From: Enterobacteria phage IME177
Strand: one strand, 5' to 3'
Sequence record: MZ398247.1
DNA: 39,224 bases
Shown here: positions 1-33,144 of the stretch, piece by piece
How positions within the stretch are numbered: the first letter of the stretch is position 1
Layout: each line of letters begins with the position of its first letter
Notes under the pieces: model-generated
Databases searched by the model: none
Told to the model about the DNA's origin: nothing
What the model saw: only the letters and a program-made list of their open reading frames with translations
Program-made: the position numbers and the translations under genes

Positions 1-1228
1 TGGAGTCCCAATTTTCCGTGACCTAGCCTTCCGTAACAAGAAGGTTGGGGCCTCAGAGATTAAGGACCTGCACAATGTTATCTTCGGTAAGGAACTGGAT
101 GACTCAATCCGTCCGTCTAAACAGGATGTCATTGACCGTCTGCGATCTTACAGTGACCTCGGTCGTGGTACAGCTACAGCTCTGGGGACTGCCAAGTATT
201 ACACTGGCGAACTTGCAGTACGCTCTCCGTTCACTAAACTCCTCAACGGTACGACCAACTACCTGTTAGATGCTGGACGTCAAGGCTTCCTGTCTGACAT
301 CGTGGAGCATAGCCTGACTGGTAGTAAGCGTAAGTTCGATGACCGCTGGCTTAAGACCGCTGGTATCTCTGACGAGCAGTGGAAGGGCATTAAGTCCCTC
401 ATCCGTGAGTCAGTGACTCGTGGTCCAGACGGGAAGTACACCATCAAGGATAAGAAGGCGTTCAGTCAGGACCCAAGGGCTATGGACCTGTGGCGTATGG
501 GTGACACCATCGCAGATGAAACGTTACTCCGTCCTCATAAGCTGTCCAACATGGACGCCAAGGCTTATGGTCCTCTCGCTAAGACTGTCCTTCAGTTTAA
601 GAACTTCGTCATCAAGTCCATCAATGGTCGAACCATGCGAACATTCTATAACGCCACGAAGAACAACCGAGCGATGGACGCTGCACTGTCTACTGTGATG
701 TCTATGGGTCTGGCTGGTATCTACTACATGGCTCAGGCGCACGTCAAGGCTTACGCTATGCAGGACGGTCGAGACCGAGATTATCTCAAGCAAGCTCTGG
801 ACCCAACGATGATTGCCTATGCGGCCCTGTCCCGTAGTTCACATCTGGGTGGACCACTTGGGGTAGCTAACATTCTAGGTGGCATCGCTGGGTATGAGGA
901 CACTAAGATGCTCCGTTCGTCTATCCTCCCGCGTTCACCTACAGAGAAACCCGAACGTGCCATCTCATATGGTGCGGCTACAAGTGACCCTGTGATGAAT
1001 GTCGTTGGTAACTTCTTGGAGCAGGTCCCGGCTTTCGGCTATGCTGCTAACGTTGGAGCTTCGGCATACAACTTGGCTGGCTACCTCAAGGCTGATACTC
1101 GTGTCAACGAGCGGGACTACATGACCGGGATGTATAATACGTTCCGTGAACTGGTTCCGAACGACCCGATTACTCAGAAGTTGCTACTGGGAACGTTTGA
1201 GGAGCAAGGTATCCACATCAAGGACTAA
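1..1228 (+). CDS. gp16: internal virion protein D (gp16), C-terminal part; 5' part of the same gene is at 36505-39224 (circular permutation)
   Basis: Frame beginning at nt 2 is open from the window start to the stop at 1226-1228. Translation (GVPIFRD...LLNGTTNYLLDAGRQG...SRSS...NDPITQKLL) is colinear with the C-terminal third of T7 gp16 as recalled. Window end ca + base 1 t completes a His codon. Confidence 0.9.
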   Translation, partial: GVPIFRDLAFRNKKVGASEIKDLHNVIFGKELDDSIRPSKQDVIDRLRSYSDLGRGTATALGTAKYYTGELAVRSPFTKLLNGTTNYLLDAGRQGFLSDIVEHSLTGSKRKFDDRWLKTAGISDEQWKGIKSLIRESVTRGPDGKYTIKDKKAFSQDPRAMDLWRMGDTIADETLLRPHKLSNMDAKAYGPLAKTVLQFKNFVIKSINGRTMRTFYNATKNNRAMDAALSTVMSMGLAGIYYMAQAHVKAYAMQDGRDRDYLKQALDPTMIAYAALSRSSHLGGPLGVANILGGIAGYEDTKMLRSSILPRSPTEKPERAISYGAATSDPVMNVVGNFLEQVPAFGYAANVGASAYNLAGYLKADTRVNERDYMTGMYNTFRELVPNDPITQKLLLGTFEEQGIHIKD

Positions 1229-1246
1229 ACTATCACTATAGGAAAC
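1224..1246 (+). promoter_or_regulatory. phage RNA polymerase promoter (phi17-like), predicted +1 at 1241
   Basis: actaaactatcactataggaaac; TCACTATAGG core identical to T7 class III promoters; 50 nt upstream of the tail fibre gene. Confidence 0.8.
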
Positions 1247-1292
1247 TGGAGGCGCTACCATAGGTCTCCGTTTAAATAACAAAGGAGGCATA

Positions 1293-3824
1293 ATGTCCAC
1301 GATTACACAATTCCCTACAGGAAACACTCAGTACAGGATTGAGTTCGACTACCTAGCCAGAACGTTTGTTGTTGTTACGCTGGTGAATAGCTCTAACCCT
1401 ACCCTGAACCGTGTACTGGAAGTTGGTCGAGATTACCGATTCCTTAATCCAACGATGGTTGAGATGTTGGTTGACCAATCAGGTTTCGACATCGTTCGCA
1501 TTCACCGTCAGACTGGAACTGACTTAGTGGTAGACTTCAGGAATGGCTCAGTGTTGACAGCTAGTGACCTGACCAATTCAGAGCTTCAGGCTATCCATAT
1601 TGCAGAAGAAGGTCGAGACCAAACGGTTGACTTAGCGAAGGAATATGCCGATGCTGCTGGTAGCTCTGCTGGCAACGCTAAGGATAGCGAGGACGAAGCA
1701 CGCCGAATCGCTGCGAGTATCAGGGAAGCTGGTCTAATTGGCTATATTACCCGTCGCTCCTTCGAGAAAGGCTACAACGTTACAACATGGAGCGAGGTCC
1801 TGCTATGGGAAGAGGATGGTGATTATTACCGCTGGGATGGTACGCTTCCAAAGAGTGTTCCTGCTGGTTCAACTCCTGAAACTTCCGGTGGGATTGGATT
1901 AGGTGCGTGGGTTAGTGTTGGTGATGCTGCTTTAAGAAGTCAGATTTCAAACCCGGAAGGGGCAATACTCTACCCGGAATTGCAGATGGCAAGATGGCGT
2001 GATGAGGGTGATGTTCGAGGCTGGGGTGCTAAAGGGGATGGTGTAACAGATAGTACGGAGAATATAGCCGCTTCACTAAATTCTCAAAAAGCTGTCGTAG
2101 CATCAGAAGGTGTATTCTCTAGTTCTGGTATTAATAGTGATTACTGTAACTTAGACGGTAGAGGCAGTGGGGTGCTAAGTCACCGTTCCAGTACAGGTAA
2201 CTACTTAGTATTTAACAATCCACGTACAGGTCGCTTAAGTAATATTACGGTAGAAAGTAATAAGGCGACGGATACCACTCAGGGACAGCAGGTATCTCTT
2301 GCTGGTGGCAGTGATGTTACGGTAAGTGACGTTAACTTCTCAAACGTTAAAGGTACTGGTTTCAGTTTAATCGCATACCCTAATGATGCGCCACCTGATG
2401 GGCTTATGATTAAAGGCATTCGAGGTAGCTATTCCGGCTATGCCACTAATAAGGCGGCTGGATGCGTACTTGCTGACTCCTCAGTTAACTCCCTCATAGA
2501 TAACGTCATTGCTAAGAACTACCCTCAGTTCGGAGCTGTAGAGCTGAAAGGTACAGCCAGTTACAACATAGTTAGTAATGTTATAGGGACAGATTGCCAG
2601 CATGTAACCTACAACGGTACTGAAGGGTCAATAGCTCCTTCTAATAACCTTATCAAGGGGGTAGTTGCTAATAATCCTAAATATGCAGCGGTTGTTGCAG
2701 GCAAAGGTAGTACCAACTTAATCTCCGATGTGCTTGTAGATTTCTCAACCTCTGATGCTAGGCAGGCTCATGGTGTTACAGTAGAAGGTCCTGATAACGT
2801 CATAAATAATGTGCTTATGTCAGGGTGTGATGGTACTAACTCTTTAGGGCAAGCTCAAACTGCTACAATTGCACGCTTTATAGATACAGCTAATAACAAC
2901 TATGCGTCTGTATTTCCTAGCTACAGTGCTACAGGTGTTATTACTTTCGAATCAGGTTCTACCCGTAACTTCGTAGAGGTAAAGCATCCGGGAAGGAGAA
3001 ACGACCTTCTCAGTGCTACTGGTACTATTAGCGGTGCAGATACTATTGACGGCACTAATAATAGCAACGTAGTGCACGCCCCTGCATTAGGGCAGTACAT
3101 AGGCAGTATGTCCGGTAGGTTCGAATGGCGGATTAAGTCCATGTCACTTCCATCAGGGGTTCTTACCTCTGCGGATAAGTACAGGATGCTTGCCGATGGG
3201 GCTGTGTCATTAGCTGTAGGCGGAGGTACTTCTTCTCAAGTACGCCTGTTCACTTCTGACGGCACTTATAGGAATATATCACTTACTAGCGGTAACGTGC
3301 GTCTTCCTACCAGTAGCACAGGTTATTTGCAGTTAGGTTCTAATGCAATGACCCCAGATAGTACTAATACATACGCATTAGGTTCCGCAAGTCGAGCATG
3401 GTCTGGCGGTTTTACTCAATCAGCATTCACTGTTGTCTCAGATGCTAGGGATAAAACAGAGCCTCTTAATATCTCAGATGCTTTACTGGATGCTTGGTCT
3501 GAAGTTGACTTTGTGCAGTTTCAGTACTTGGACCGAATTGAGGAGAAGGGTGCAGACTCAGCTAGATGGCACTTCGGCATCATCGCTCAGCGAGCTAAGG
3601 AGGCCTTCGAACGTCACGGTATAGATGCACACCGCTATGGCTTCCTGTGCTTCGACAGTTGGGATGATGTATACGAGGAAGATGCCAATGGCTCTCGTAA
3701 ACTGATTACACCAGCAGGTTCCCGCTACGGTATTCGTTACGAGGAAGTACTGATATTAGAGGCTGCGTTGATGCGGCGTACTATTAAGCGTATGCAGGAA
3801 GCATTAGCTGTTATGTCTAAGTGA
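1293..3824 (+). CDS. gp17: tail fibre / tailspike protein: T7 gp17-like N-terminal anchor + pectate-lyase-3-like beta-helix domain + C-terminal intramolecular chaperone (peptidase S74-like) domain
   Basis: 843-aa ORF with RBS aaaggagg. N-terminus (EFDYLARTFVVVTL...HIAEEGRD) resembles T7 gp17 N-terminal domain; WGAKGDGVTDSTENIAASL is the hallmark start of pectate-lyase-3 beta-helix domains; C-terminus carries SDARDK...RWHFGIIAQRAKEAF, the pattern of self-cleaving chaperone domains of phage tailspikes. Confidence 0.88.
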   Translation: MSTITQFPTGNTQYRIEFDYLARTFVVVTLVNSSNPTLNRVLEVGRDYRFLNPTMVEMLVDQSGFDIVRIHRQTGTDLVVDFRNGSVLTASDLTNSELQAIHIAEEGRDQTVDLAKEYADAAGSSAGNAKDSEDEARRIAASIREAGLIGYITRRSFEKGYNVTTWSEVLLWEEDGDYYRWDGTLPKSVPAGSTPETSGGIGLGAWVSVGDAALRSQISNPEGAILYPELQMARWRDEGDVRGWGAKGDGVTDSTENIAASLNSQKAVVASEGVFSSSGINSDYCNLDGRGSGVLSHRSSTGNYLVFNNPRTGRLSNITVESNKATDTTQGQQVSLAGGSDVTVSDVNFSNVKGTGFSLIAYPNDAPPDGLMIKGIRGSYSGYATNKAAGCVLADSSVNSLIDNVIAKNYPQFGAVELKGTASYNIVSNVIGTDCQHVTYNGTEGSIAPSNNLIKGVVANNPKYAAVVAGKGSTNLISDVLVDFSTSDARQAHGVTVEGPDNVINNVLMSGCDGTNSLGQAQTATIARFIDTANNNYASVFPSYSATGVITFESGSTRNFVEVKHPGRRNDLLSATGTISGADTIDGTNNSNVVHAPALGQYIGSMSGRFEWRIKSMSLPSGVLTSADKYRMLADGAVSLAVGGGTSSQVRLFTSDGTYRNISLTSGNVRLPTSSTGYLQLGSNAMTPDSTNTYALGSASRAWSGGFTQSAFTVVSDARDKTEPLNISDALLDAWSEVDFVQFQYLDRIEEKGADSARWHFGIIAQRAKEAFERHGIDAHRYGFLCFDSWDDVYEEDANGSRKLITPAGSRYGIRYEEVLILEAALMRRTIKRMQEALAVMSK

Positions 3825-6772: not shown

Positions 6773-6795
6773 ACTTAACTATCACTATAGGGAAG
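6773..6795 (+). promoter_or_regulatory. phage RNA polymerase promoter (phiOR-like), predicted +1 at 6790
   Basis: acttaactatcactatagggaag downstream of the large terminase gene, the position of T7 phiOR. Confidence 0.8.
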
Positions 6796-7372: not shown

Positions 7373-7590
7373 TCTCACAGTTCAAGAACCTCAAGTCTCC
7401 CCATAGGCCCTCTTTAAGTCCAGACCAAAGGCCCTACCCGTTACTGCTCCTTGCAGTCACAGCCAGTCTATCATAAGGTTAGACCGATGGTCAAGACGTT
7501 AGGTCAACTATAGGTCTAGGCTATGGCTGGAGGTCAGGACGATAGGTAGGGACTATGGGTCTGTCTCTGAGTCTCTATCTGTATAACCAT
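7373..7590 (+). repeat. probable direct terminal repeat / physical genome end region (single copy in this permuted assembly); boundaries approximate
   Basis: tctcacagttcaagaacctcaagtctccccatagg resembles the T7 left end (TCTCACAGTGTACGGACCTAAAGTTCCCCCATAGGGGG as recalled); flanked on both sides by ACCTAC(A/G)GT short repeats, as the T7 terminal repeat is flanked by CCTAAAG-type repeats. Confidence 0.4.
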
Positions 7591-7935: not shown

Positions 7936-7965
7936 TTGACAAGATGTACCGACTTAAAGTAGTAT
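7936..7965 (+). promoter_or_regulatory. sigma70-type early promoter (A2/A3-like): -35 TTGACA, -10 TAGTAT
   Basis: ttgacaagatgtaccgacttaaagtagtatgtaccac parallels T7 A3 (TTGACAacatgaagtaaacacggTACGATgtaccac as recalled). Confidence 0.55.
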
Positions 7966-9529: not shown

Positions 9530-9552
9530 ACTTAACTATCACTATAGGACTC
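9530..9552 (+). promoter_or_regulatory. phage RNA polymerase promoter directly upstream of the RNA polymerase gene, predicted +1 at 9547
   Basis: cttaactatcactataggactca; 75 nt upstream of the gene 1 start codon. Confidence 0.75.
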
Positions 9553-9621: not shown

Positions 9622-12303
9622 ATGAGCGTCATCTCTATTGATAAACACGACTTCTCTGATGTGTCGAACGCCATTGAGCCGTTTAACCTGCTGGCCGACC
9701 ACTACGGGCAAGACCTTGCAGTCAAACAGCTTCAGCTTGAGCATGAGGCATATACAGAAGGCGAGCGACGTTTCATCAAGAACCTTGAGCGCCAGACCGA
9801 GCGCGGGGAACTGGCAGACAATCAGGTCGCCAAGCCTTTGATGCAGACTCTGGTCCCTAAGATTGCGCAAGCCGTCAGGGAGTGGCACGAAGGCCTAGAC
9901 GGGAAGCTGTCAACCTCGCGTCCTAGCGTAGCGTTCACCATGTTGAGCACTGAAGAGAAGGCCGTAAAGGACCGCTCTATGCGCATCTCCTGTGAGTCCG
10001 CTGCGGTTATCATACTGAAGGTCATACTCTCCAAGCTGGTCAAGCCTGAAGGGATACCGATTACACCGATGGCCTCCGCGATAGGTCGCACACTTGAGGA
10101 CGAAATCCGCTTCGGTCGCATCCGTGACAAAGAGAAGGAGCACTTCAAGAAGGCGATAGCTGAGAACCTGAACAAGCGAGCTGGGGCATCCTACAAGAAA
10201 GCCTACATGCAAGCGGTCGAGGCGTCCATGCTGGAGCAAGGCCAACTGGAAGATGCATGGGGGACTTGGAGTCCTACAGAGGCTGTCCACGTTGGCATCA
10301 AGATGCTCGAGATTGTCATCCAGTCAACACAACTGGTCGAGCTTAAGCGGTACGGTGCTGGTAATGCAGCGGCTGACGTAGAGATGGTCCACCTGTCAGA
10401 CTTCTGGGTCAAGAAGATGGCACAACGAGGATTCAGCCTTGCGGGTATCGCTCCAGTCTACCAGCCTTGCGTCGTTCCGCCTAAGCCGTGGACTGGTGTC
10501 GTAGGTGGTGGGTACTGGGCCAAAGGTCGCAGACCGTTACCATTGATTCGCTTAGGGTCTAAGTCTGCGGTAGCACGTTATGAAGACGTATACATGCCTG
10601 AAGTCTATGACGCTGTGAACATCATTCAGAATACACCTTGGAAAGTTAACAAGAAGGTATTGGACGTGGTGAACATGGTCGAGAAGCTGAACAACACGCC
10701 TATTGATGACATCCCTCAGATGGAACCGCTGAAGCCTGAGGACTATGCTGGTGAAACCGAGGAGGAACTCAAGGCATGGAAGAAGGCTGCTGCTGGTATC
10801 TATCGCCGCGAGAAGGCCAGACAGTCACGCAGATTGTCCATGAGTTTCATCGTATCACAGGCCAACAAGTTCTCACAGTTTAAGGCCATCTGGTTCCCGT
10901 ACAACATGGATTGGCGAGGTCGTGTCTACGCTGTCCCGATGTTCAACCCTCAGGGTAACGACATGCAGAAGGGTCTACTGACTCTGGCGGTCGGAAAGCC
11001 TATCGGGGCGGATGGTTTCAAATGGCTTAAAGTCCACACCGCCAACTGCGCGGGTGTCGATAAGGTAACCTTTGAGGAGCGTATCAAATGGGTGGAAGAC
11101 AATCACGAGAACATTCTGGCAGCAGCCAAATCACCGATGGACAGCATCGAGTGGTGGGGGAGTATGGACAGCCCCTTCTGCTTCCTAGCGGCTTGCTTCG
11201 AGTATTCTGGGGTGATGAACCATGGCTTGACCTACAATTGCTCACTTCCGATTGCCTTCGACGGCTCGTGTTCGGGGATTCAGCACTTCAGCGCGATGCT
11301 GAGGGACCACGTAGGCGGACATGCAGTGAACTTAACGCCGTCTGGTCAGGTGCAGGACATCTACCGTATAGTCTCAGACCGTGTGTCAGACCAGTTGAAA
11401 GAGCTATTACTGAGCGGTACGGACGACGAGCTGGTGACCGTAGAGGACAAGAAGACTGGGGAAATCAGCGAACGCCTGAAGCTTGGGACCAAGAGTCTTG
11501 CGCGTCAGTGGCTGCAATTCGGTATGTCTCGCTCGGTCACTAAGCGCTCGGTCATGACTCTGGCCTACGGGTCGAAAGAGTATGGGTTCGCCGACCAAGT
11601 GTTCGAAGACACCGTGATGCCAGCGATTGACTCCGGTAAGGGAGCAATGTTCACCGAGCCAAGCCAAGCGTCTCGCTTCATGGCTAAGATGATTTGGGAA
11701 GCTGTGAGTGTGACAGTAGTTGCTGCGGTTGACGCGATGAAGTGGCTTCAAGGTGCCGCCAAGCTGCTGGCTGCTGAAGTGAAGGACAAGAAGACTGGTG
11801 AAATCCTGAAGCCATGCCTTCCGGTACACTGGGTCACACCTGATGGGTTCCCGGTCTGGCAGGAATACCGCAAGAAGGATACCACTCGTCTGAACCTGAT
11901 GTTCTTAGGGTCCTTCAACCTTCAACCTACGGTCAACAAAGGTACGAAGAAAGAGCTGGACAAGCACAAGCAGGAGTCAGGCATTAGCCCGAACTTCGTC
12001 CACTCACAAGATGGTAGCCACCTCCGCAAGACTGTAGTCCACACTCACCGAAAGTATGGCGTGATGTCATTCGCAGTGATTCACGATAGCTTCGGGACCA
12101 TCCCGGCTGACGCTGAGTATCTGTTCCGTGGCGTCCGTGAGACGATGGTAGAGACTTACCGCGATAACGATGTGCTGCTTGACTTCTACGAGCAGTTTGA
12201 ATACCAGCTTCATGAAAGTCAGCGCGACAAGTTGCCTGAGCTTCCGAAGAAAGGTAAACTGAATATCGAAGACATCTTGTCTTCAGACTTTGCATTCGCT
12301 TAA
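9622..12303 (+). CDS. gp1: single-subunit DNA-directed RNA polymerase (T7 gp1-like)
   Basis: 893 aa; colinear with T7 RNAP as recalled, including catalytic-Asp motifs AFDGSCSGIQHFSAMLRD and VIHDSFGTIPADA, specificity-loop region LNLMFLGSFNLQPTVNKGTK, C-terminal FAFA. Confidence 0.97.
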   Translation: MSVISIDKHDFSDVSNAIEPFNLLADHYGQDLAVKQLQLEHEAYTEGERRFIKNLERQTERGELADNQVAKPLMQTLVPKIAQAVREWHEGLDGKLSTSRPSVAFTMLSTEEKAVKDRSMRISCESAAVIILKVILSKLVKPEGIPITPMASAIGRTLEDEIRFGRIRDKEKEHFKKAIAENLNKRAGASYKKAYMQAVEASMLEQGQLEDAWGTWSPTEAVHVGIKMLEIVIQSTQLVELKRYGAGNAAADVEMVHLSDFWVKKMAQRGFSLAGIAPVYQPCVVPPKPWTGVVGGGYWAKGRRPLPLIRLGSKSAVARYEDVYMPEVYDAVNIIQNTPWKVNKKVLDVVNMVEKLNNTPIDDIPQMEPLKPEDYAGETEEELKAWKKAAAGIYRREKARQSRRLSMSFIVSQANKFSQFKAIWFPYNMDWRGRVYAVPMFNPQGNDMQKGLLTLAVGKPIGADGFKWLKVHTANCAGVDKVTFEERIKWVEDNHENILAAAKSPMDSIEWWGSMDSPFCFLAACFEYSGVMNHGLTYNCSLPIAFDGSCSGIQHFSAMLRDHVGGHAVNLTPSGQVQDIYRIVSDRVSDQLKELLLSGTDDELVTVEDKKTGEISERLKLGTKSLARQWLQFGMSRSVTKRSVMTLAYGSKEYGFADQVFEDTVMPAIDSGKGAMFTEPSQASRFMAKMIWEAVSVTVVAAVDAMKWLQGAAKLLAAEVKDKKTGEILKPCLPVHWVTPDGFPVWQEYRKKDTTRLNLMFLGSFNLQPTVNKGTKKELDKHKQESGISPNFVHSQDGSHLRKTVVHTHRKYGVMSFAVIHDSFGTIPADAEYLFRGVRETMVETYRDNDVLLDFYEQFEYQLHESQRDKLPELPKKGKLNIEDILSSDFAFA

Positions 12304-12849: not shown

Positions 12850-12872
12850 CCTAAACTATCACTATAGGATTA
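12850..12872 (+). promoter_or_regulatory. phage RNA polymerase promoter (phi1.1-like), predicted +1 at 12867
   Basis: cctaaactatcactataggatta. Confidence 0.8.
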
Positions 12873-13125: not shown

Positions 13126-13374
13126 ATGAGCAGACGTTGGGTATTTGATGCGTCCACCAGCCAGTGGTCATCGTTAGGCCGGACACACCGCGAGCTGCGT
13201 GAGGCAGGACTTGAGGTCAGAATGGATGTCCTGCCGTGCTCCGGAAAGACTCTGGTCCTAATCATTGAAGCAGACGGGAAGCCTCTGGTATCCCGCGAGT
13301 TCACCGAACACGAAATCTTTAGCTGTGAGCAATGGTGCTTGCAACAACTGAATGCTTATAGGAGCTGGAAATAA
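13126..13374 (+). CDS. gp1.2-like protein (82 aa)
   Basis: Position between gp1.1 and ligase; size and C-terminal ...SWK similar to T7 gp1.2 (...DWK); weak similarity only. Confidence 0.5.
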   Translation: MSRRWVFDASTSQWSSLGRTHRELREAGLEVRMDVLPCSGKTLVLIIEADGKPLVSREFTEHEIFSCEQWCLQQLNAYRSWK

Positions 13375-14449
13375 TGACTACGACTATTAAAACTAACCCG
13401 CACCGCGCTGTAGATTACTCTGAGTCTGGCGTTAAGAAGGCTTTGGAAGCTGCCGGGTCGCTGGAAGCTGAAGTGAAGTATGACGGTGTGCGTATAAACA
13501 TCCCGGTCTTCCCTACTGGTGAGACCCAATGGTTGAGCCGTGAGTCTAAACCTCTCCCAGCCCTTGAGTGGCTGTCAGTCCTTACCAACATCGACAACAT
13601 CGTCAGGGACCAGCAAAAAGCTAGCGACTGGCGGTGGTTCCTGAAGCAGGCTGGCTACGAAGGCACTGGTCTGATGATTGACGGTGAGGTCATGGTAAAA
13701 GGAGTGGACTTCAATACGTCTTCAGGTCTAGTCCGTACCATGTGGTCAGACACTAAGAACTACGCTTGGAATGGCAACCCAGATGCTGACATCGACACCA
13801 AGAAGAAGCATAAGGTCCCTTTCCATCTGGCAACCGACTACATACGCGTGGTTGTCTACGGTATCGTGGACCTTAACGTCATCCTTGACCCGAAATCCGA
13901 GGTCCTATTCATAGCGTCACACGCCTGAAGGCCGAAGCTATCGTCCCTCTCCTCCAGAAATACTTCCCGGAAATCGACTGGGTTCTGTCTGAGTCACACA
14001 CGGTCTATGACCTTGAGTCGCTCAACTCCCTGTACGAACAGAAGCGTCTGGAAGGACACGAGGGTCTGGTAGTCAAGGACCCGCTTGGTAAATATAAGCG
14101 TGGCAAGAAGTCTGGCATGTGGAAAATGAAGCCTGAGGAGACCATCGACGGGACCGTGTGTGGCCTCGTGTGGGGGACTCCGGGTAAGGCCAACGAAGGT
14201 AAGGTGATTGGCTTTGAGGTTCTGCTTGAGGATGGCATGGTGGTTAACGCCTGTGGTCTGACTGAAGAACAGAAGGATGAGTTTACGGAAGCCTGTAACA
14301 CTGATACATATATTCTCGGTGGAATCAATCCATACGAAGGCTGGCAGTGTGAAGTCCTCTTCATGGAGCGCTTCCCTGATGGTTCCCTTCGTCACCCTAG
14401 CTTCAAGTGCTGGCGCGGGACGGAAGACAATCCAACCGTTAAGAGTTAA
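13374..14449 (+). pseudogene. gp1.3: ATP-dependent DNA ligase (gp1.3-like) with reading frame interrupted: N-terminal ORF 13374-13928 and C-terminal part in the -1 frame (open 13889-14449)
   Basis: N-part has ligase motif I EVKYDGVR and is colinear with T7 ligase; C-part (...PLLQKYFPEIDW...EGHEGLVVKDP...GSLRHPSFKCWRGTEDNP) continues the alignment in another frame. Adding one base near 13924-13926 (cc run) restores a ~370-aa ORF. Confidence 0.8.
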
Positions 14450-14458
14450 CTAAATGTC

Positions 14459-14493
14459 AACCCAGTGGTCTTCGGACTGCTGGGTTTCTTTGC
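14459..14493 (+). terminator. rho-independent terminator (TE-like, early terminator after ligase)
   Basis: aacccagtggtcttcggactgctgggtttctttgc: GC stem with UUCG loop followed by U-rich tract; T7 TE is also directly after gene 1.3. Confidence 0.65.
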
Positions 14494-14531: not shown

Positions 14532-14554
14532 CCTAAGCTATCACTATAGGACAA
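14532..14554 (+). promoter_or_regulatory. phage RNA polymerase promoter (phi1.5-like), predicted +1 at 14549
   Basis: cctaagctatcactataggacaa. Confidence 0.75.
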
Positions 14555-15795: not shown

Positions 15796-15950
15796 CTGAG
15801 GTTGAGAAGAAGTACATCGTGGAGCTTGAGGGACGCGTTCAGTCCTTCGAGGTTCCGTTGTACGCAAAGTCTCTTGAAGAGGCTACCCTGAAGTCCCAAG
15901 AGTATGAGGACGCTGGTTTTGTGGTCGGTCGGATTCGTCCTGAGACCTAA
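15792..15950 (+). CDS. gp2: host RNA polymerase inhibitor (gp2-like)
   Basis: 52-aa ORF below track cutoff; [14 protein letters not shown]...[10 protein letters not shown] resembles T7 Gp2 (SFEVPIYAETLDEA...GFEVTRVRP as recalled); position before SSB. Confidence 0.65.
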
Positions 15951-15968
15951 ACTATCACTGTAGGACAG
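15946..15968 (+). promoter_or_regulatory. variant phage promoter (phi2.5-like), TCACTGTAGG core, predicted +1 at 15963
   Basis: cctaaactatcactgtaggacag; A to G change at -3 relative to the window consensus. Confidence 0.6.
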
Positions 15969-18100: not shown

Positions 18101-18316
18101 ATGATTAAACTTATCGAATTTCTTGGTCGTCTGGTGGTGCGTGGTTATCGTCGTGCTGCGGTTATGGAACGAAAGGTAGAAAAGAAGACTGCTGACAGTG
18201 CGGCTGATGCAGCTGCTCTGGCTGACAAGCTGGCCATCGCGTCACTGGAAGCTGGCATGAAGGCACGTCAAGCTGACACCAAAGCTGACCAGTTGGCTCA
18301 GTTCTTCAAAGCCTAA
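18101..18316 (+). CDS. hypothetical protein (71 aa), Ala/Lys-rich
   Basis: ORF with RBS taaaggag; predicted helical, charged. Confidence 0.5.
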   Translation: MIKLIEFLGRLVVRGYRRAAVMERKVEKKTADSAADAAALADKLAIASLEAGMKARQADTKADQLAQFFKA

Positions 18317-18334
18317 ACTATCACCTTAGGGATG
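18312..18334 (+). promoter_or_regulatory. variant phage promoter (phi4-like), TCACCTTAGG core, predicted +1 at 18329
   Basis: cctaaactatcaccttagggatg; followed by hairpin gggacaataagtcctgtccc (18335-18354) and ttt. Confidence 0.5.
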
Positions 18335-20326: not shown

Positions 20327-22498
20327 ATGTTTGACCTTAAGAGTATCTGGGGTTCTGATATCGAGACCAACGGTCTCCTTGATACAGTCTCCCAGTTTCA
20401 CTGTGGGGTCCTGATTAACGCCGAGTCGAATGAGACCCTTAAGTATGGGGTAACTCCGATGGTCGGTATCGTCGGTGGCTTCAAAGAGTATGTACAGAAG
20501 GTGGAAGAGATTGCCGCATCACCTGATGGTATGCTGGTATTCCACAACGGTATCAACTATGACGTCCCGGCTATTGACAAGCTGAAGCGTCTGTACTTTG
20601 GGAAACGCTTTAACTTCCCGAAACACAAGATGATTGATACCTTGGTGCTGGGCCGCTTGATGTATCCAAACATTAAGTTCTCAGACATGGGAGCAGTGAA
20701 AGCTGGTCGTCTGCCACCTAAGATGATGGGACGCCAGTCTCTTGAGGCTTGGGGCTATCGTCTCGGTGAGATGAAAGGTGAGTACAAACACGATTACGTT
20801 GCCAAGTGCAAGGCTGAAGGTGTCGAATATAAGGATGGGGACGAATGGTTGTTCCCGTCTCAGGAGATGCTAGACTATAACGTTCAAGACGTTGTGGTCA
20901 CACTGGCGTTGTTCAAGAAGTTCCTGACCGACAAGTATTACTTCCAGTCTGAACAGTTCGCTTTCGACCAGATTTATGCGTTGCGTCTGGAACATGATGC
21001 TGCGTGGACCTGTGCGAAGATGGAACGTAACGGCTATCCGATGAACACCGAGATGGTCGAAGGCTTATATCGTGAACTCACCGTCAAACGTGCAGAGTTG
21101 TTGGACAAGCTGCGTTCGACTTTCGGTAGCTGGTATGCACCAAAGGGAGGCAAGGAGTTCTTCAAGCACCCACGGACAGGCAAGGACCTTCCGAAGTATC
21201 CGCGAGTCGTGTATCCTAAGGTCGGGTCAGTATTCAAGAAGCCGAAGAACAAAGCTCAACGCTTAGGTCTGGAACCTTGCGAGTTCGACTCACGAGACAC
21301 GATGGAAGGAGCACCGTTCACGCCAATCACTTACGTTGAGTTTAATCCGGGAAGCGGAGACCACTTAGCGAAAGTCTTGATGGAGCGTGGTTGGGGGCCT
21401 GTGGACTTCACTGACACTGGGAAACCTGTAGTCGATGACGAGACGTTAGAACACGTTAAGCTACCAGACGCAGAGGCTCAGGCTTGCGTAGAGCTGGTCC
21501 GTGAGTATCTGGTAGTCCAGAAGCGCATCGGTCAGGCGGCTGAAGGTAAGAACGCATGGTTGAAACTTGTAGGTCCAGACGGACGTATGCACGGTTCAAT
21601 CAACCCATGCGGTGCAGTAACAGGACGTGCGACTCATAGTTCACCAAACATGGCTCAGGTCCCTGCTAACGGTGCTCCGTATGGTGAGATTTGCCGTGGT
21701 GCTTTCGGTGCAGCTTGGAACAAGACGGATGGTAAGCCAGACCCTTGGATTCAAGTGGGTGTGGATGCTTCAGGTCTTGAGCTTCGTTGTCTGGGGAACC
21801 GAGCAGCTCCGTTTGATGGTGGTGCCTATGCGAAGACTGTGGTCGAAGGTGACATCCACTGGGCCAACGCAGTAAACGCTGGTTTAGCACCTAACGTCCC
21901 ACGCGATAAATCGAACCACGACCATGATGCTTTCCGTAACAACGCTAAGACGTTCATCTATGCGTTCCTGTATGGTGCAGGGGCCGCTAAGATTGGACTG
22001 ATAGTCGGCGGTGGTAAGAAGGAAGGTTCAGCTCTCATGAAGAAATTCATTGAGGGTACACCAGCCATCAAAGACCTCAGGGAAGCTGTGAGTAATACGT
22101 TAATCTCAGACTCTAAGTGGGTGGACGGAGAGAACATCGTCAAGTGGAAACGCCGTTGGTTGCGCGGACTTGACGGGCGCCGTATCCACATCCGGTCGCC
22201 GCACTCAGCACTGAACGCCTTACTTCAAGGCGATGGTGCGGTAGTCTGTAAAACGTGGTTCACTTGGCTTGAGAGGAACCTAGAAGCTAAAGGCTACGTG
22301 CATGGCTGGGATGGTGACTTTGCGATTATGGCTTTTGTCCATGATGAAGTTCAAGTTGCCGCAAGGACTATGGAAATAGCTGAGGACATCGTTAAGGTGG
22401 CGCAATCCACAATGCGAGAGGTTGGAGAGTTCTACCAGTTCAAGTGTGTGCTTGACACCGAGGGAAAGATAGGGGCTACGTGGCGCGAATGTCACTAA
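20327..22498 (+). CDS. gp5: DNA polymerase (gp5-like, family A)
   Basis: 723 aa; exonuclease motif SDIETNGL, polymerase motifs VGVDASGLELRCL, KTFIYAFLYGAG, FVHDEVQV; colinear with T7 gp5 as recalled. Confidence 0.97.
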   Translation: MFDLKSIWGSDIETNGLLDTVSQFHCGVLINAESNETLKYGVTPMVGIVGGFKEYVQKVEEIAASPDGMLVFHNGINYDVPAIDKLKRLYFGKRFNFPKHKMIDTLVLGRLMYPNIKFSDMGAVKAGRLPPKMMGRQSLEAWGYRLGEMKGEYKHDYVAKCKAEGVEYKDGDEWLFPSQEMLDYNVQDVVVTLALFKKFLTDKYYFQSEQFAFDQIYALRLEHDAAWTCAKMERNGYPMNTEMVEGLYRELTVKRAELLDKLRSTFGSWYAPKGGKEFFKHPRTGKDLPKYPRVVYPKVGSVFKKPKNKAQRLGLEPCEFDSRDTMEGAPFTPITYVEFNPGSGDHLAKVLMERGWGPVDFTDTGKPVVDDETLEHVKLPDAEAQACVELVREYLVVQKRIGQAAEGKNAWLKLVGPDGRMHGSINPCGAVTGRATHSSPNMAQVPANGAPYGEICRGAFGAAWNKTDGKPDPWIQVGVDASGLELRCLGNRAAPFDGGAYAKTVVEGDIHWANAVNAGLAPNVPRDKSNHDHDAFRNNAKTFIYAFLYGAGAAKIGLIVGGGKKEGSALMKKFIEGTPAIKDLREAVSNTLISDSKWVDGENIVKWKRRWLRGLDGRRIHIRSPHSALNALLQGDGAVVCKTWFTWLERNLEAKGYVHGWDGDFAIMAFVHDEVQVAARTMEIAEDIVKVAQSTMREVGEFYQFKCVLDTEGKIGATWRECH

Positions 22499-24690: not shown

Positions 24691-24742
24691 GTCTAACCGA
24701 TAGTCATATCCTATCAATCCAACAGTCATCCATAGGTGAAAC

Positions 24743-24765
24743 ACTAAACTATCACTATAGGGACT
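24743..24765 (+). promoter_or_regulatory. phage RNA polymerase promoter (phi6.5-like), predicted +1 at 24760
   Basis: cactaaactatcactatagggac. Confidence 0.8.
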
Positions 24766-24826
24766 TTAGGACCTAAGATATGACTATAAGATAGACTTTA
24801 GTCTTAACTTAAAGAGGAGATTCAAG

Positions 24827-26005: not shown

Positions 26006-27574
26006 ATGGCTGAACGTGAAGGGTTCGCTGCTGAAGGAGCCAAAGCGGTCTATGACCGACTGAAGAACGGTAGACAGCCATATGAGACACGCGCTCAGAA
26101 CTGTGCTGCTGTCACTATCCCGTCACTGTTTCCTAAGGAGTCCGACAACTCGTCTACTGAGTACACAACTCCGTGGCAAGCTGTAGGTGCTCGCTGTTTG
26201 AACAACTTGGCTGCAAAGCTGATGTTGGCATTATTTCCCCAGTCACCGTGGATGCGACTGACAGTCTCCGAATATGAGGCCAAGACCTTGAGTCAGGACT
26301 CAGAGGCTGCTGCTCGTGTTGACGAAGGGCTGGCTATGGTCGAGCGTGTGTTGATGGCCTACATGGAGACCAACAGTTTCCGTGTGCCATTGTTCGAAGC
26401 TCTGAAGCAGCTTATCGTCTCCGGTAACTGTCTGCTTTACATTCCAGAGCCTGAACAGGGTACTTACAGTCCTATGCGAATGTACCGCTTAGTGTCCTAC
26501 GTTGTTCAACGTGATGCTTTCGGTAATATCTTGCAGATTGTGACTCTCGACAAGGTAGCGTTTAGTGCTCTACCGGAAGACGTTAAGTCACAACTCAACG
26601 CAGACGACTATGAGCCTGACACAGAGCTGGAAGTATATACGCACATCTACCGTCAAGACGACGAGTATCTACGTTATGAGGAAGTGGAAGGCATTGAGGT
26701 AGCAGGGACCGAGGGTTCTTACCCACTGACTGCATGTCCATACATCCCGGTACGAATGGTTCGACTGGATGGTGAAGACTATGGTCGTTCTTACTGCGAG
26801 GAGTATCTGGGAGACCTGAACTCGCTGGAGACGATTACAGAAGCTATCACCAAAATGGCTAAGGTAGCCTCCAAGGTGGTGGGCCTCGTTAACCCGAACG
26901 GTATCACGCAACCTCGTCGTCTGAACAAGGCGGCTACAGGTGAGTTCGTTGCCGGTCGCGTTGAGGACATCAACTTCCTGCAACTGACTAAGGGTCAGGA
27001 CTTTACGATTGCCAAGTCGGTGGCTGATGCTATCGAGCAACGTTTAGGCTGGGCCTTCCTTCTTAATAGTGCTGTTCAGCGTAATGCCGAGCGAGTCACT
27101 GCTGAAGAGATTCGTTATGTTGCTGGAGAACTGGAGGCGACCTTAGGTGGCGTGTACTCAGTACAATCCCAAGAGCTTCAGTTACCTATCGTCCGTGTGC
27201 TTATGAACCAGCTTCAGTCTGCTGGCATGATTCCTGACCTTCCGAAAGAAGCGGTAGAGCCTACGGTATCCACTGGTCTGGAAGCGTTAGGTCGTGGTCA
27301 AGACTTAGAGAAGCTGACTCAGGCAGTCAACATGATGACCGGGCTACAGCCTCTGCAACAGGACCCAGACATTAACTTGCCGACCCTGAAGCTGCGACTG
27401 CTGAATGCCTTAGGCATTGATACTGCTGGCCTTCTGCTGACTCAGGACGAGAAGATGCAACGTATGGCTGAACAGTCCGCTCAAGGAGCTGTGGTCAACG
27501 GTGCGTCTGCTGCTGGTGCTAACATGGGCGCTACTGTTGGACAAGTAGCTGGTGAGGACATGGCTCAAGCCTAA
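26006..27574 (+). CDS. gp8: head-to-tail connector (portal) protein (gp8-like)
   Basis: 522 aa; YETRAQNCA, TPWQAVGAR, YRLVSYVVQRDAFGN, GLVNPNGITQPRRL, RVTAEEIRYVAGELE colinear with T7 gp8 as recalled. Confidence 0.96.
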   Translation: MAEREGFAAEGAKAVYDRLKNGRQPYETRAQNCAAVTIPSLFPKESDNSSTEYTTPWQAVGARCLNNLAAKLMLALFPQSPWMRLTVSEYEAKTLSQDSEAAARVDEGLAMVERVLMAYMETNSFRVPLFEALKQLIVSGNCLLYIPEPEQGTYSPMRMYRLVSYVVQRDAFGNILQIVTLDKVAFSALPEDVKSQLNADDYEPDTELEVYTHIYRQDDEYLRYEEVEGIEVAGTEGSYPLTACPYIPVRMVRLDGEDYGRSYCEEYLGDLNSLETITEAITKMAKVASKVVGLVNPNGITQPRRLNKAATGEFVAGRVEDINFLQLTKGQDFTIAKSVADAIEQRLGWAFLLNSAVQRNAERVTAEEIRYVAGELEATLGGVYSVQSQELQLPIVRVLMNQLQSAGMIPDLPKEAVEPTVSTGLEALGRGQDLEKLTQAVNMMTGLQPLQQDPDINLPTLKLRLLNALGIDTAGLLLTQDEKMQRMAEQSAQGAVVNGASAAGANMGATVGQVAGEDMAQA

Positions 27575-27592
27575 ACTATCACTATAGGAACA
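27570..27592 (+). promoter_or_regulatory. phage RNA polymerase promoter (phi9-like), predicted +1 at 27587
   Basis: cctaaactatcactataggaaca; overlaps the portal gene stop. Confidence 0.8.
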
Positions 27593-28565: not shown

Positions 28566-28588
28566 ACTAAACTATCACTATAGGGAGA
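28566..28588 (+). promoter_or_regulatory. phage RNA polymerase promoter (phi10-like, strong), predicted +1 at 28583
   Basis: ctaaactatcactatagggagac; TCACTATAGGGAGA identical to T7 strong promoters from -7 to +6. Confidence 0.85.
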
Positions 28589-30003: not shown

Positions 30004-30006
30004 TTG

Positions 30007-30046
30007 AAACCCCTTGGGTGCCTTCGGGTGCTTGAGGGGTTTTTTT
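30007..30046 (+). terminator. rho-independent terminator (Tphi-like)
   Basis: aaccccttgggtgccttcgggtgcttgaggggttttttt, very similar to T7 Tphi (AACCCCTTGGGGCCTCTAAACGGGTCTTGAGGGGTTTTTTG as recalled). Confidence 0.9.
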
Positions 30047-30155: not shown

Positions 30156-30163
30156 GAGGGAGT

Positions 30164-30730
30164 ATGGCTCAATACATTCCACTGAATGCTAACGATGACT
30201 TAGACGCTATCAACGATATGTTAGCTGCTATCGGTGAACCAGCAGTCCTACAGCTTGACGAGGGGAATGCTGACGTCTCGAACGCCCAACGTATCCTGCA
30301 TCGTGTCAATCGTCAGGTCCAAGCTAAAGGCTGGAACTTTAACATCAACGAAGCTGCTGTCCTGACACCTGATGTCCAAGACAATAGGATTCGATTCTTG
30401 CCGTCATACCTTCGTGTAATGACCGCTGGGGCCACCAGCTACTACAGCAACATGGGTGGATACCTGTACGACCTGTCCACTCAGTCGACCACTTTCACCG
30501 ACCCTATCACGGTAGAGCTTGTGGAGATGAAGCCATTCTCAGAGATGCCTGTGGTCTTCAGGGACTACATCGTCACTAAAGCTAGCCGTGAGTTCAACGC
30601 TAAGTTCTTCGGTAGCCCAGAGTCTGAACTGTACCTTCGTGAGCAGGAAGCAGAACTCTATCAGCAGGTCATGGAATACGAGATGGATACTGGTCGCTAC
30701 AACATGATGTCCGACATTGGGAGAGACTAA
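30164..30730 (+). CDS. gp11: tail tubular protein A (gp11-like)
   Basis: ATG 30164 after gataggaggg; ...AIGEPAV..., RDYIVTKASREFNAKFFGSPE, MEYEMDTGRYNM colinear with T7 gp11 as recalled (track ORF starts at upstream in-frame ATG 30134). Confidence 0.93.
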   Translation: MAQYIPLNANDDLDAINDMLAAIGEPAVLQLDEGNADVSNAQRILHRVNRQVQAKGWNFNINEAAVLTPDVQDNRIRFLPSYLRVMTAGATSYYSNMGGYLYDLSTQSTTFTDPITVELVEMKPFSEMPVVFRDYIVTKASREFNAKFFGSPESELYLREQEAELYQQVMEYEMDTGRYNMMSDIGRD

Positions 30731-33087
30731 TGCCACTAATTACTCAATCAATCAAGAACCTTAAGGGTGGCATTAGCCAACAGCCTGACATACTGAGGTT
30801 CTCAGACCAAGGCGAGTCACAGGTTAACTGCTGGTCATCAGAGAGTGATGGCCTCCAGAAGCGTCCACCTACAGTCTTCAAGCGACGTCTTAACATCGAC
30901 GTTGGGAGCAACCCTAAGTTCCACCTGATTAACCGTGATGAGCATGAGCAGTATTACATCGTGTTCAATGGGTCCAACATTCAGGTAGTTGACTTGAGTG
31001 GTAATCAATACTCAGTGTCAGGTGCGGTAGACTACGTTAAGTCCTCCAACCCACGAGATGACATCCGTGTCGTTACCGTGGCAGACTATACGTTCGTCGT
31101 TAACCGTAAGGTTGTCGTCAAAAGTGGAAGCGAGAAGTCACACTCTGGTTATAACCGCAAAGCACGAGCTTTAATTAACCTGCGTGGTGGGCAGTATGGT
31201 CGAACCCTTAAGGTGGGAATCAACGGTGGCGTTAAGGTCTCGCATAAGCTACCAGCAGGTAATGATGCCGAGAATGACCCACCTAAGGTGGACGCTCAAG
31301 CCATTGGTGCAGCTCTGAGAGACCTTCTTGTTCAGTCCTATCCTGACTTCACGTTTGACCTTGGGTCTGGCTTCCTGCTAATCACAGCTCCTTCAGGGAC
31401 CGACATTAACTCAGTGGAGACGGAGGATGGCTACGCTAACCAGCTAATAAGCCCAGTCCTAGACACTGTGCAGACAATCTCTAAACTACCTCTTGCCGCT
31501 CCTAATGGGTATATCATTAAGGTTCAAGGTGAAACAAACAGTAGCGCCGATGAATACTACGTGATGTATGACTCCAACACTAAGACGTGGAAGGAGACAG
31601 TGGAGCCGGGAGTTGTCACTGGGTTCAACAACACCACAATGCCACATGCTCTGGTAAGACAGTCTGACGGCTCCTTTGAGTTCAAGACTCTGGATTGGTC
31701 CAAGCGTGGTGCTGGTAACGATGACACCAACCCTATGCCTAGCTTCGTGGATGCTGCGATTAATGATGTGTTCTTCTACAGGAACAGGCTAGGGTTCTTG
31801 TCGGGTGAGAACGTAATCATGAGCCGTTCAGCCAGCTACTTTGCGTTCTTCCCTAAGAGTGTGGCGACACTGAGTGATGCCGATCCTATTGATGTAGCTG
31901 TAAGTCACCCTCGAATCTCAATCCTTAAGTATGCCGTTCCGTTTAGCGAGCAGCTACTACTTTGGTCGGATGAGGTTCAGTTCGTGATGACAAGCTCTGG
32001 GGTCCTTACCTCGAAGTCTATCCAGCTTGATGTAGGCTCAGAGTTTGCCTTAGGCGATAATGCCAGACCGTTCGCTGTAGGACGCTCAGTCTTCTTCTCA
32101 GCTCCTCGTGGGTCATTCACCAGCATTAAGCGATACTTCGCTGTAGCTGATGTGTCTGATGTGAAGGACGCTGATGATACAACCGGTCACGTATTGTCCT
32201 ACATCCCTAACGGGGTGTTTGATATTCAAGGTACAGGGACTGAGAACTACATCTGCGTCAACTCTACAGGTGCATACAACCGAATCTACATCTACAAGTT
32301 CTTGTTTAAGGACGGCGTACAGCTTCAAGCCTCTTGGTCACACTGGGAGTTCCCTAAAGATGATAAGATTCTGGCGTCTGCTTCTATTGGCTCTACCATG
32401 TTCATTGTTCGTCAGCACCAAGGAGGGGTAGACATTGAGCACCTTAAGTTCATCAAGGAGGCAACTGACTTCCCGTCAGAGCCATATAGACTACACATTG
32501 ACTCCAAGGTGTCTATGGTAATTCCAATTGGCTCATATAACGCTGACACCTATAAGACTACGGTTGACATTGGTGCTGCTTATGGCGGCAACGCTCCGTC
32601 TCCCGGTCGGTACTATCTGATTGACAGTCAGGGTGCTTATGTGGACCTTGGGGACTTGACCAGTATCTCTACTGTGATTACCCTCAACGGCGATTGGTCA
32701 GGACGTACAGTGTTCATCGGACGGCCCTATCTGATGTCCTACAAGTTCTCACGGTTCCTGATTAAGATTGAAGATGATAGTGGCACTCAGTCTGAAGACA
32801 CTGGTCGTCTACAGCTTCGTCGGGCTTGGGTCAACTACAAGGACACTGGCGCTCTGAGACTCATTGTCAGAAACGGTGAGCGGGAGTTCGTGAATACCTT
32901 CAACGGGTACACCCTTGGTCAGCAAACCATCGGTACTACAAACATTGGTGACGGGCAGTATCGATTCGCTATGAATGGTAACGCATTAACCACGAGTCTA
33001 ACCTTAGAGTCCGACTATCCTACCCCAGTGTCCATCGTTGGGTGTGGCTGGGAGGCATCATACGCTAAGAAAGCTCGTTCAGTCTAA
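30730..33087 (+). CDS. gp12: tail tubular protein B (gp12-like)
   Basis: 785 aa; start overlaps gp11 stop (TAATG); size and position match T7 gp12 (794 aa). Confidence 0.93.
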   Translation: MPLITQSIKNLKGGISQQPDILRFSDQGESQVNCWSSESDGLQKRPPTVFKRRLNIDVGSNPKFHLINRDEHEQYYIVFNGSNIQVVDLSGNQYSVSGAVDYVKSSNPRDDIRVVTVADYTFVVNRKVVVKSGSEKSHSGYNRKARALINLRGGQYGRTLKVGINGGVKVSHKLPAGNDAENDPPKVDAQAIGAALRDLLVQSYPDFTFDLGSGFLLITAPSGTDINSVETEDGYANQLISPVLDTVQTISKLPLAAPNGYIIKVQGETNSSADEYYVMYDSNTKTWKETVEPGVVTGFNNTTMPHALVRQSDGSFEFKTLDWSKRGAGNDDTNPMPSFVDAAINDVFFYRNRLGFLSGENVIMSRSASYFAFFPKSVATLSDADPIDVAVSHPRISILKYAVPFSEQLLLWSDEVQFVMTSSGVLTSKSIQLDVGSEFALGDNARPFAVGRSVFFSAPRGSFTSIKRYFAVADVSDVKDADDTTGHVLSYIPNGVFDIQGTGTENYICVNSTGAYNRIYIYKFLFKDGVQLQASWSHWEFPKDDKILASASIGSTMFIVRQHQGGVDIEHLKFIKEATDFPSEPYRLHIDSKVSMVIPIGSYNADTYKTTVDIGAAYGGNAPSPGRYYLIDSQGAYVDLGDLTSISTVITLNGDWSGRTVFIGRPYLMSYKFSRFLIKIEDDSGTQSEDTGRLQLRRAWVNYKDTGALRLIVRNGEREFVNTFNGYTLGQQTIGTTNIGDGQYRFAMNGNALTTSLTLESDYPTPVSIVGCGWEASYAKKARSV

Positions 33088-33094
33088 CTTATTG

Positions 33095-33144
33095 AAGGGC
33101 CTATAGATTTACCTTAACTATCACTATAGGGACTATAGGCCCTT
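33095..33144 (+). promoter_or_regulatory. 12-bp perfect inverted repeat (aagggcctatag / ctataggccctt) bracketing the phi13-like promoter
   Basis: Arms at 33095-33106 and 33133-33144 read directly from sequence. Confidence 0.5.
33112..33134 (+). promoter_or_regulatory. phage RNA polymerase promoter (phi13-like), predicted +1 at 33129
   Basis: accttaactatcactatagggac. Confidence 0.8.

Follow-up and report, generated by a model that had tools for sequence, protein, structure and literature searches.

A K1F-class set of eleven phage promoters and the RNA polymerase of Enterobacteria phage IME177

A repeat that resembles the T7 promoter and departs from it at positions -12 to -9 occurs eleven times in Enterobacteria phage IME177 (record MZ398247.1), and raises the question whether the phage RNA polymerase (RNAP) and its promoters form a pair with a specificity of their own. 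The original prediction took this to be the case and considered the pair potentially orthogonal to T7 RNAP. The window, by which we mean the whole stretch of 39,224 nucleotides analysed here, represents a Kayfunavirus genome (K1F-like, Studiervirinae) in circularly permuted form; in the regions that were searched, the records closest to it show 97-99% identity, and no deposited record is identical. An apparent one-base deletion lies in the ligase gene near 13900, and the end of the window carries an apparent 60-nt duplicate.

The repeat itself proved to be real. At two mismatches or fewer, TAAACTATCACTATAGG matched at 11 sites in the window, all on the + strand, against a chance expectation of 0.08 estimated from shuffled sequences, and 0 of 100 shuffles gave 11. 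A genome-wide position-weight-matrix scan of both strands recovered the same sites at 31.7-37.8 bits (26.6-37.0 in leave-one-out scoring), followed only by a single site of 14.6 bits and by others at 8 bits or less; with this clear gap in score to everything else, the set of 11 promoters is complete. The 14.6-bit site, at 24774, is a remnant that was not accepted as a functional promoter, having C-7 changed to G, G+1 changed to A and three further changes from the consensus. The promoter alignment holds about 33 bits over -23 to +8, mostly within -17 to +4, and its consensus reads (a/c)CT(A/T)AACTATCACTATAGG(G/A)A. The coordinates first assigned to the sites agree with this frame, each lying 2 nt upstream of a TAAACTATCACTATAGG match and thus marking position -17 of a 23-bp promoter (Table 1).

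All 11 promoters are oriented with the genes and stand at positions syntenic with T7 (1.x, 1.6, 2.5, 4, 6.5, 9, 10, 13, 17 and OR/right end), with genes that possess a Shine-Dalgarno sequence beginning 30-259 nt downstream. Their description as always intergenic is an approximation: at the matches starting at 1226, 15948, 18314 and 27572 the preceding gene ends with the TAA at -15 to -13 as its stop codon, and the promoter at 6775 lies within a small ORF that is annotated in the K1F record DQ111067. Repeats of this kind might in principle serve recombination, packaging or replication rather than transcription, a reading whose probability we regard as practically negligible given the T7 promoter core, the spacing to genes, the syntenic placement and the gene-directed orientation. 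It is also at odds with experiments on phage Ro45lw (MK301532), whose purified RNAP, 93% identical to that of the window, transcribes from ACTTAACTATCACTATAGGGA with a G mapped as +1 (PMC12272871); this minimal promoter is the sequence that the window carries at 6773. By analogy with that enzyme and its identical promoter, for which initiation at the +1 G is experimental, the cognate RNAP of the window would be expected to initiate at the same base. The start sites of the eleven promoters, like their relative strengths, are predicted. Nothing in the window reached the gathering threshold in an Rfam scan of its full length.

Sequence variation among the sites is limited and largely conserved between phages. 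The core TCACTATAGG is unchanged in 9 of the 11, and ACTAT occupies -12 to -8 in all except the 14534 site, which like its orthologue in K1F has GCTAT; this A-12G variant is found in Ro45lw (annotated 'phi1.6') and in R1 as well. Two variants ahead of replication genes, TCACTGTAGG at 15948 and TCACCTTAGG at 18314, had been quoted correctly in the original prediction as natural down-variants, and a weaker activity of these candidates is plausible. The first (A-3G) is kept in K1F, Ro45lw, R1 and many IMG/VR contigs, while the second (T-4C/A-3T) is shared with K1F and R1, unlike the gene 4 promoter of Ro45lw, which reads TCACCTAAGG.

Table 1. Promoters, polymerase features and terminators in the window, with the start of each TAAACTATCACTATAGG match and the K1F orthologue where given.
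Feature	Position	Strand	Match start	Context	K1F
phi17-like promoter (-17 to +6)	1224..1246	+	1226	+1 G at 1241; gene 17 (tail spike, 1293-3824) 52 nt downstream; TAA 1226-1228 is gp16 stop	32599
phiOR-like promoter	6773..6795	+	6775	downstream of terminase gene 19; ~600-800 bp ahead of collapsed terminal repeat (~7373-7575)	38854
Gene 1 (RNAP) promoter	9530..9552	+	9532	75 nt upstream of gene 1	2476, identical over -23 to +8
Gene 1, T7-like single-subunit RNAP, 893 aa	9622..12303	+		Pfam RNA_pol (E 4e-105) and RPOL_N
AT-rich recognition loop codons	9898..9930	+		aligned to T7 93-101; DGKLSTSRPSV vs KAKRGKRPT in T7
Specificity hairpin codons, TTRLNLMFLGSFNLQPTV	11881..11934	+		window residues 754-771 = T7 Q744-I761
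phi1.1/1.3-like promoter	12850..12872	+	12852	after gene 1, before small ORFs and ligase gene	5554, identical
TE-like intrinsic terminator hairpin	14459..14486	+		12-bp stem and T-rich tail, directly after ligase gene
phi1.6-like promoter, A-12G variant TAAGCTATC...	14532..14554	+	14534	gene 1.6 30 nt downstream
phi2.5-like promoter, A-3G variant	15946..15968	+	15948	SSB gene 45 nt downstream; TAA is gene 2 stop
Gene 4 (primase/helicase) promoter, T-4C/A-3T variant	18312..18334	+	18314	TAA is stop of ORF 18101-18316
phi6.5-like promoter	24743..24765	+	24745	gene 6.5 67 nt downstream
phi9-like promoter	27570..27592	+	27572	gene 9 93 nt downstream; TAA is gene 8 (portal) stop
phi10-like promoter	28566..28588	+	28568	start region complete, ...TATAGGGAGA; major capsid gene 108 nt downstream
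Tphi-like terminator	30006..30043	+		17-bp stem, T7-run tail, after capsid gene
phi13-like promoter	33112..33134	+	33114	gene 13 35 nt downstream

The general design is that of T7, with which the window shares the 23-bp promoter, the +1 G, the class II/III layout, the TE and Tphi terminators and an identical core; the latter had been placed at -7 to +2, whereas TCACTATAGG in fact covers -8 to +2. T7 has 17 promoters with the consensus TAATACGACTCACTATAGGGAGA as opposed to 11 here, one of which, in distinction to T7, immediately precedes gene 1. The difference previously noticed at -12 to -9 (CGAC in T7, ACTA in the window) is genuine, and a second divergent block at -17 to -14 (TAAT in T7, (A/C)CT(A/T) in the window) had been missed together with a matching change in an N-terminal loop of the polymerase, so that eight of the nine positions between -17 and -9 differ.

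Gene 1 encodes an RNAP with 95.4% identity to that of K1F, 93% to that of Ro45lw and 64% to that of T7, in which equivalents of the T7 catalytic residues D537, K631, Y639, H784 and D812 are all present. Protein alignment bears out both loop sequences that had been compared from the outset, GSFNLQPTVNKGTK for the window and GQFRLQPTINTNK for T7, although within the quoted stretch only S and N (T7 754 and 756) belong to the base-reading hairpin, VNKGTK lying mostly past it. In T7 numbering the hairpin keeps R746, N748 and Q758 and carries the changes Q744T, Q754S, R756N and I761V. The AT-rich recognition loop has likewise diverged from T7, with two one-residue insertions in the alignment, and we infer, by analogy with what is established for the T7 RNAP-promoter complex, that it reads the divergent block at -17 to -14.

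Whether this combination is new was decided by comparison with coliphage K1F. A match to the promoter set of a characterised phage had been named beforehand as an outcome that would speak against a new specificity, and K1F provides it: the genome (DQ111067, AM084414) has 11 promoters in the same order and map positions, 11 of 11 identical to those of the window over -15 to +2, the three non-consensus ones included, and 7 of 11 identical over -23 to +8, with few flanking bases differing. Promoter annotation is absent from both K1F GenBank records, and the genome itself and PMC11880802 (Table 2) served as sources of the K1F promoter sequence. Over the specificity segment (T7 725-790) the two polymerases are 100% identical, and all 41 substitutions that separate them fall outside the specificity loop. 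N748, N756, Q758, S754 and V761 (T7 numbering), hairpin residues expected of the K1F specificity class, are all present in the window RNAP, and genome-wide relatedness to K1F and other Kayfunavirus phages and one-to-one promoter orthology are found as well. The combination of 754S/756N/761V with ACTAT at -12 to -8 is moreover that of the published T7(K1F) graft and its cognate promoter (PMC11880802, Table 2).

The motif also recurs elsewhere, with several copies in each genome, namely in Ro45lw, in R1 and in about 25 IMG/VR contigs of 39-40 kb. Twelve such sites are present in Ro45lw, seven of them annotated as promoters in its record, with an additional promoter ahead of the DNA polymerase gene relative to the window; its RNAP agrees with that of the window in the residues corresponding to T7 746, 748, 754, 756 and 758, and has one conservative change in the hairpin, where L replaces M at T7 position 750. 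CTWAACTATCACTATAGG, the same repeat, has been reported as a promoter of another Kayfunavirus (PMC13298934). A new, uncharacterised specificity, and hence a new orthogonal pair, is therefore very improbable: the loop and the -12 to -9 block are indeed different from those of T7 and the genome is identical to no deposited record, but K1F has the same promoters and loop segment, the motif is repeated across these relatives, and the pair has been published and in use since 2012. What stands of the original prediction is the pairing of a polymerase with a changed loop to its promoters, -12 to -9 co-varying with Q754S, R756N and I761V, and what falls is its novelty; the specificity is that of the K1F class, already known.

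We thus read the 11 sites, with a probability of roughly 95%, as the complete middle and late promoter set of a K1F-like phage of the T7 group, recognised by its own gp1 RNAP. By analogy with T7, the early region and gene 1 would first be transcribed by the host RNA polymerase, after which gp1 would bind each 23-bp promoter, its C-terminal specificity hairpin reading the major groove at about -12 to -7 through R756, N758, N766 and Q768 of the window (T7 positions 746, 748, 756 and 758) and its N-terminal AT-rich recognition loop reading -17 to -13. The conserved TATA at -4 to -1 would then melt and RNA would start at the G of GG(G/A), with the TE-like terminator that follows the ligase gene and the Tphi-like one behind the capsid gene probably closing the transcription units. 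In T7 RNAP the arginine at 756 reads the G:C pair at -9, and R756N, together with Q754S and I761V, goes along with the replacement of CGAC by ACTA at -12 to -9. However, since N748 is unchanged while -11 and -10 differ from T7, such residue-to-base reading leaves part of the -12 to -9 change unexplained.

The degree of orthogonality to T7 is a separate matter, on which the published data on K1F-derived systems bear. The K1F loop placed in T7 RNAP, combined with a promoter carrying the K1F -12 to -7 block, gave 17-fold induction (Temme et al., 2012, PMC3458549), and this T7(K1F) graft was reported as orthogonal to T7, T3 and N4. For the loop-graft set, orthogonality has elsewhere been put at only about 8-fold, with non-cognate activity still relatively high (PMC11880802), and a background signal was ascribed to cross-reactivity of T7 RNAP with the promoters tested (PMC12272871). 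These observations, and the identical -8 to +2 core, would fit a polymerase that is not meaningfully orthogonal to T7 and shows substantial cross-recognition. We nevertheless consider this unlikely, as Temme et al. call each graft highly orthogonal (PMC3458549), as eight of the nine positions from -17 to -9 are changed relative to T7 in the natural promoters where the grafts changed only four, and as neither genome has a near-match to the consensus of the other (no site for the T7 consensus in the window, nor for the window consensus in T7, at three mismatches or fewer). Full-length K1F RNAP with PK1F serves both for expression and as a mutator system, in which on-target mutations became about 46,000-fold more frequent with the cognate promoter, compared with 6-27-fold for the two non-cognate promoters assayed, those of MmP1 and VP4 (PMC12218169).

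In the published K1F grafts both the -17 to -14 block and the AT-rich loop are kept in their T7 version. It is possible, and we put it forward only tentatively, that the natural -17 to -14 block and the remodelled AT-rich loop contribute independently to discrimination. Should this be true, orthogonality to T7 would be far stricter for the full-length enzyme acting at a natural 23-mer than the ~8-fold of the graft, and the block with its loop could be a separately transferable specificity element.

The finding is an ordinary one, since the promoter set and specificity loop of K1F were known before and already serve as a T7-orthogonal pair. The specificity exemplifies the textbook co-variation of the T7-family specificity loop with positions -12 to -8, and synthetic biology already has the pair among its tools, with PK1F combined with T7(K1F) or K1F RNAP. 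Its importance lies mainly in annotation, namely the K1F-like placement of the phage and a full transcription map comprising the 11 promoters, TE, Tphi and the collapsed terminal repeat. Scans for sigma-70 promoters and terminators gave overall counts at or below shuffle expectation in the window, and from the terminator scan just two long hairpins, both syntenic with T7, were retained: that at 14459-14486 has the map position of T7 TE, and that at 30006-30043 the position of T7 Tphi, with a terminator annotated at the equivalent place in the Ro45lw record. Apart from this shared transcriptional layout, the window differs from K1F in its tail spike, whose receptor-binding body is a different one and not the K1F endosialidase, and in its DNA polymerase gene, which, unlike that of K1F, is free of interruption by a homing endonuclease.

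A search of the whole window with the motif TAAACTATCACTATAGG, allowing up to three mismatches, returned exactly 11 matches, all on the + strand and each with at most two mismatches, against a chance expectation of 0.08 from dinucleotide-preserving shuffles. The eleven coordinates of the original prediction agree with these, each lying 2 nt upstream of the match, at -17 of the 23-bp promoter. When a weight matrix spanning -18 to +4 was run over both strands, the same 11 sites scored 31.7-37.8 bits (26.6-37.0 in leave-one-out scoring), the runner-up reached 14.6 bits, and no other site on either strand exceeded 8 bits; given this clean separation of scores, the promoter set is complete and unambiguous. 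The runner-up, TAAGATATGACTATAAG at 24774-24790, is a decayed promoter-like copy with 4 mismatches, located 29 nt past the phi6.5-like promoter and conserved in coliphage K1F (17208); the - strand carries a related inverted copy at 24713. This decayed copy may have been left behind when a promoter was duplicated in tandem, or may belong to an RNA-processing hairpin.

Features of the window and the aligned specificity hairpins (promoters listed by start of match)
Feature	Position	Strand	Remarks
Promoter	1226	+	TAA is stop codon of gene 16
Promoter	6775	+	
Promoter	9532	+	
Promoter	12852	+	
Promoter	14534	+	
Promoter	15948	+	TAA is stop codon of gene 2
Promoter	18314	+	TAA is stop codon of ORF 18101-18316
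Promoter	24745	+	
Promoter	27572	+	TAA is stop codon of gene 8
Promoter	28568	+	
Promoter	33114	+	
Gene 1, RNAP	9622-12303		893 aa; Pfam RNA_pol and RPOL_N domains
Ligase adenylation domain	13374-13928		first frame
Ligase C-terminal domain	14117-14449		second frame
Strong hairpin terminator, TE-like	14459-14486		after ligase gene, T7-syntenic place
Strong hairpin terminator, Tphi-like	30006-30043		after capsid gene, T7-syntenic place
Specificity hairpin, T7	Q744-I761 (T7 numbering)		QTRLNLMFLGQFRLQPTI
Specificity hairpin, window	Q744-I761 (T7 numbering)		TTRLNLMFLGSFNLQPTV

Aligned on +1, the sites give the consensus (a/c)CT(A/T)AACTATCACTATAGG(G/A)A. Compared with the 17 annotated T7 promoters, the core from -8 to +2 (TCACTATAGG) is identical, whereas -12 to -9 reads ACTA in place of CGAC, as had been predicted, and a second block differs at -17 to -14, with (A/C)CT(A/T) where T7 has TAAT. 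Within three mismatches, the window holds no T7-consensus site and T7 no site of the window consensus. Every promoter is followed, 30-259 nt downstream, by a gene with a Shine-Dalgarno sequence, and the positions mirror the T7 promoter map (phi1.x, 1.6, 2.5, 4, 6.5, 9, 10, 13, 17, OR). The description of the sites as always intergenic is approximately right, but in four promoters the TAA at -15 to -13 also terminates the gene before it. By analogy with the T7 class II promoters, those before genes 2.5 and 4 are plausibly weak variants, a reading consistent with the conservation of these variants across the genus. Short repeated motifs, GACTCAAGGTC and GACTCAAAGTC, follow just after several promoters (9547, 12867, 28583) in positions resembling those that RNase III processing hairpins occupy in T7; Rfam matched no family to them.

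One of the 11, a full-strength promoter at 9530-9552, lies 75 nt before gene 1, the gene for the phage's own RNA polymerase (RNAP), which would mean positive autoregulation of its product, gp1. T7 has just the E. coli promoter C at this position, while K1F and Escherichia phage vB_EcoP-R1 share the arrangement of the window and Escherichia phage Ro45lw carries it as a T-2A variant.

The polymerase is 64% identical to T7 RNAP and has equivalents of all five of D537, K631, Y639, H784 and D812. Its specificity hairpin retains R746, N748 and Q758 and differs by Q744T, Q754S, R756N and I761V. Residues 746, 748, 756 and 758 of T7 RNAP (R, N, R and Q) hydrogen-bond promoter bases, and the dominant specificity code comprises residues 748, 756 and 758 with promoter positions -12 to -8 (PMC11880802); R756N is thus the key difference from T7. 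The mechanism put forward in the original prediction, in which promoter and specificity loop co-vary so that the specificity differs from that of T7, is upheld. The stretch that aligns with residues 93-101 of T7, the AT-rich recognition loop, has diverged as well and includes two one-residue insertions, which would fit the differing -17 to -14 block.

This pair is nevertheless already known, and belongs to the K1F specificity class. The promoters coincide with those of a phage characterised before, an outcome that the original prediction had itself named as refuting it. All 11 recur in K1F (DQ111067), with order and downstream genes unchanged; 7 are identical to those of the window over -23 to +8 and all 11 over -15 to +2, including the non-consensus TAAGCTATC..., TCACTGTAGG and TCACCTTAGG. 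Its gp1 is 95.4% identical, the 41 differences all falling at or before residue 673 and the segment equivalent to T7 725-790 being 100% identical. In Ro45lw, a Kayfunavirus whose RNAP is 93% identical, the motif occurs 12 times, and 7 of these sites are annotated as promoters; vB_EcoP-R1 has 10 in the genome portion searched, and about 25 IMG/VR contigs of 39-40 kb carry several copies apiece. The A-3G variant, which the window has before gene 2.5, is present in 20 of the 100 loci compared. Temme et al. (2012) transplanted the K1F hairpin into T7 RNAP and the K1F -12 to -7 block into the T7 promoter, obtaining 17-fold induction and reporting orthogonality to T7, T3 and N4 (PMC3458549). The substitutions and promoter bases of the window are exactly those listed for this graft, 754S/756N/761V with cognate ACTAT, and the orthogonality of the grafted set is rated about 8 (PMC11880802). 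The K1F loop was reused as a "sigma fragment" (Segall-Shapiro et al., 2014; PMC4299498), and full-length K1F RNAP with its promoter PK1F serves as an expression and mutator system, raising mutation frequency ~46,000-fold on target at the cognate promoter and 6-27-fold at the non-cognate MmP1 and VP4 promoters (PMC12218169). The RNAP of Ro45lw has been purified and characterised on ACTTAACTATCACTATAGGGA, where +1 mapped to G (PMC12272871), and a 2026 genome note on another Kayfunavirus gives its promoter repeat as CTWAACTATCACTATAGG (PMC13298934). Together, the -17 to -14 block and the remodelled N-terminal loop may act as a second module of specificity, which the published grafts kept in its T7 form.

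Across the RNAP region the window and vB_EcoP-R1 are 99.4% identical, with Kayfunavirus matches in hundreds of records, and 12400-37000 (24.6 kb) shares 95-97% identity with other Kayfunavirus phages; synteny with K1F is complete (tblastn of K1F proteins against the window). The window is circularly permuted and starts within gene 16. The K1F ends align at ~7373 (left) and ~7575 (right), and the interval of about 7373-7575 holds a single collapsed copy of the direct terminal repeat, which in K1F is 178 bp long. The top sigma-70-like site of the early region (7936-7965; TTGACA, 18 nt, TAGTAT; 10/12 matches) falls between this repeat and gene 0.3, the location of the T7 A1-A3 promoters.

The last 59 nt (39166-39224) exactly repeat 39106-39164 at 60-nt spacing inside gene 16 (units 39106-39165 and 39166-39224, the second running on into position 1), which, if real, would duplicate 20 aa in tandem and in frame, giving HQNLTEIGGMLARGNVRAML twice. 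Only a single copy (165 query bases to 106 record bases) is present in the eight top-scoring of 188 matching phage records, both K1F records (DQ111067, AM084414) included. Since the repeat lies exactly at the window boundary, its likeliest origin is an artefact of assembly or circularisation. In the DNA ligase gene (gene 1.3, 13374-14449), a one-base deletion relative to vB_EcoP-R1 (CCG-AGG vs CAGAAGG) splits the coding sequence over two frames near 13900, which reflects either an error in sequencing or a true ligase pseudogene; T7 can do without its ligase where the host is ligase-proficient. The DNA polymerase gene (gene 5, 20327-22498) is a single uninterrupted ORF of 723 aa, whereas K1F and Ro45lw have an HNH homing endonuclease insertion within or after it. 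The tail spike gp17 (1293-3824) is a mosaic: its N-terminal 263 aa, comprising the T7 tail-fibre N domain and the TSP1/Gp66 N domain, are 92% identical to K1F gp17, but its central receptor-binding body bears no relation to the K1F endosialidase and the C-terminal Peptidase_S74 intramolecular chaperone domain only about 29% identical, which would imply a capsule or receptor specificity other than that of K1F.
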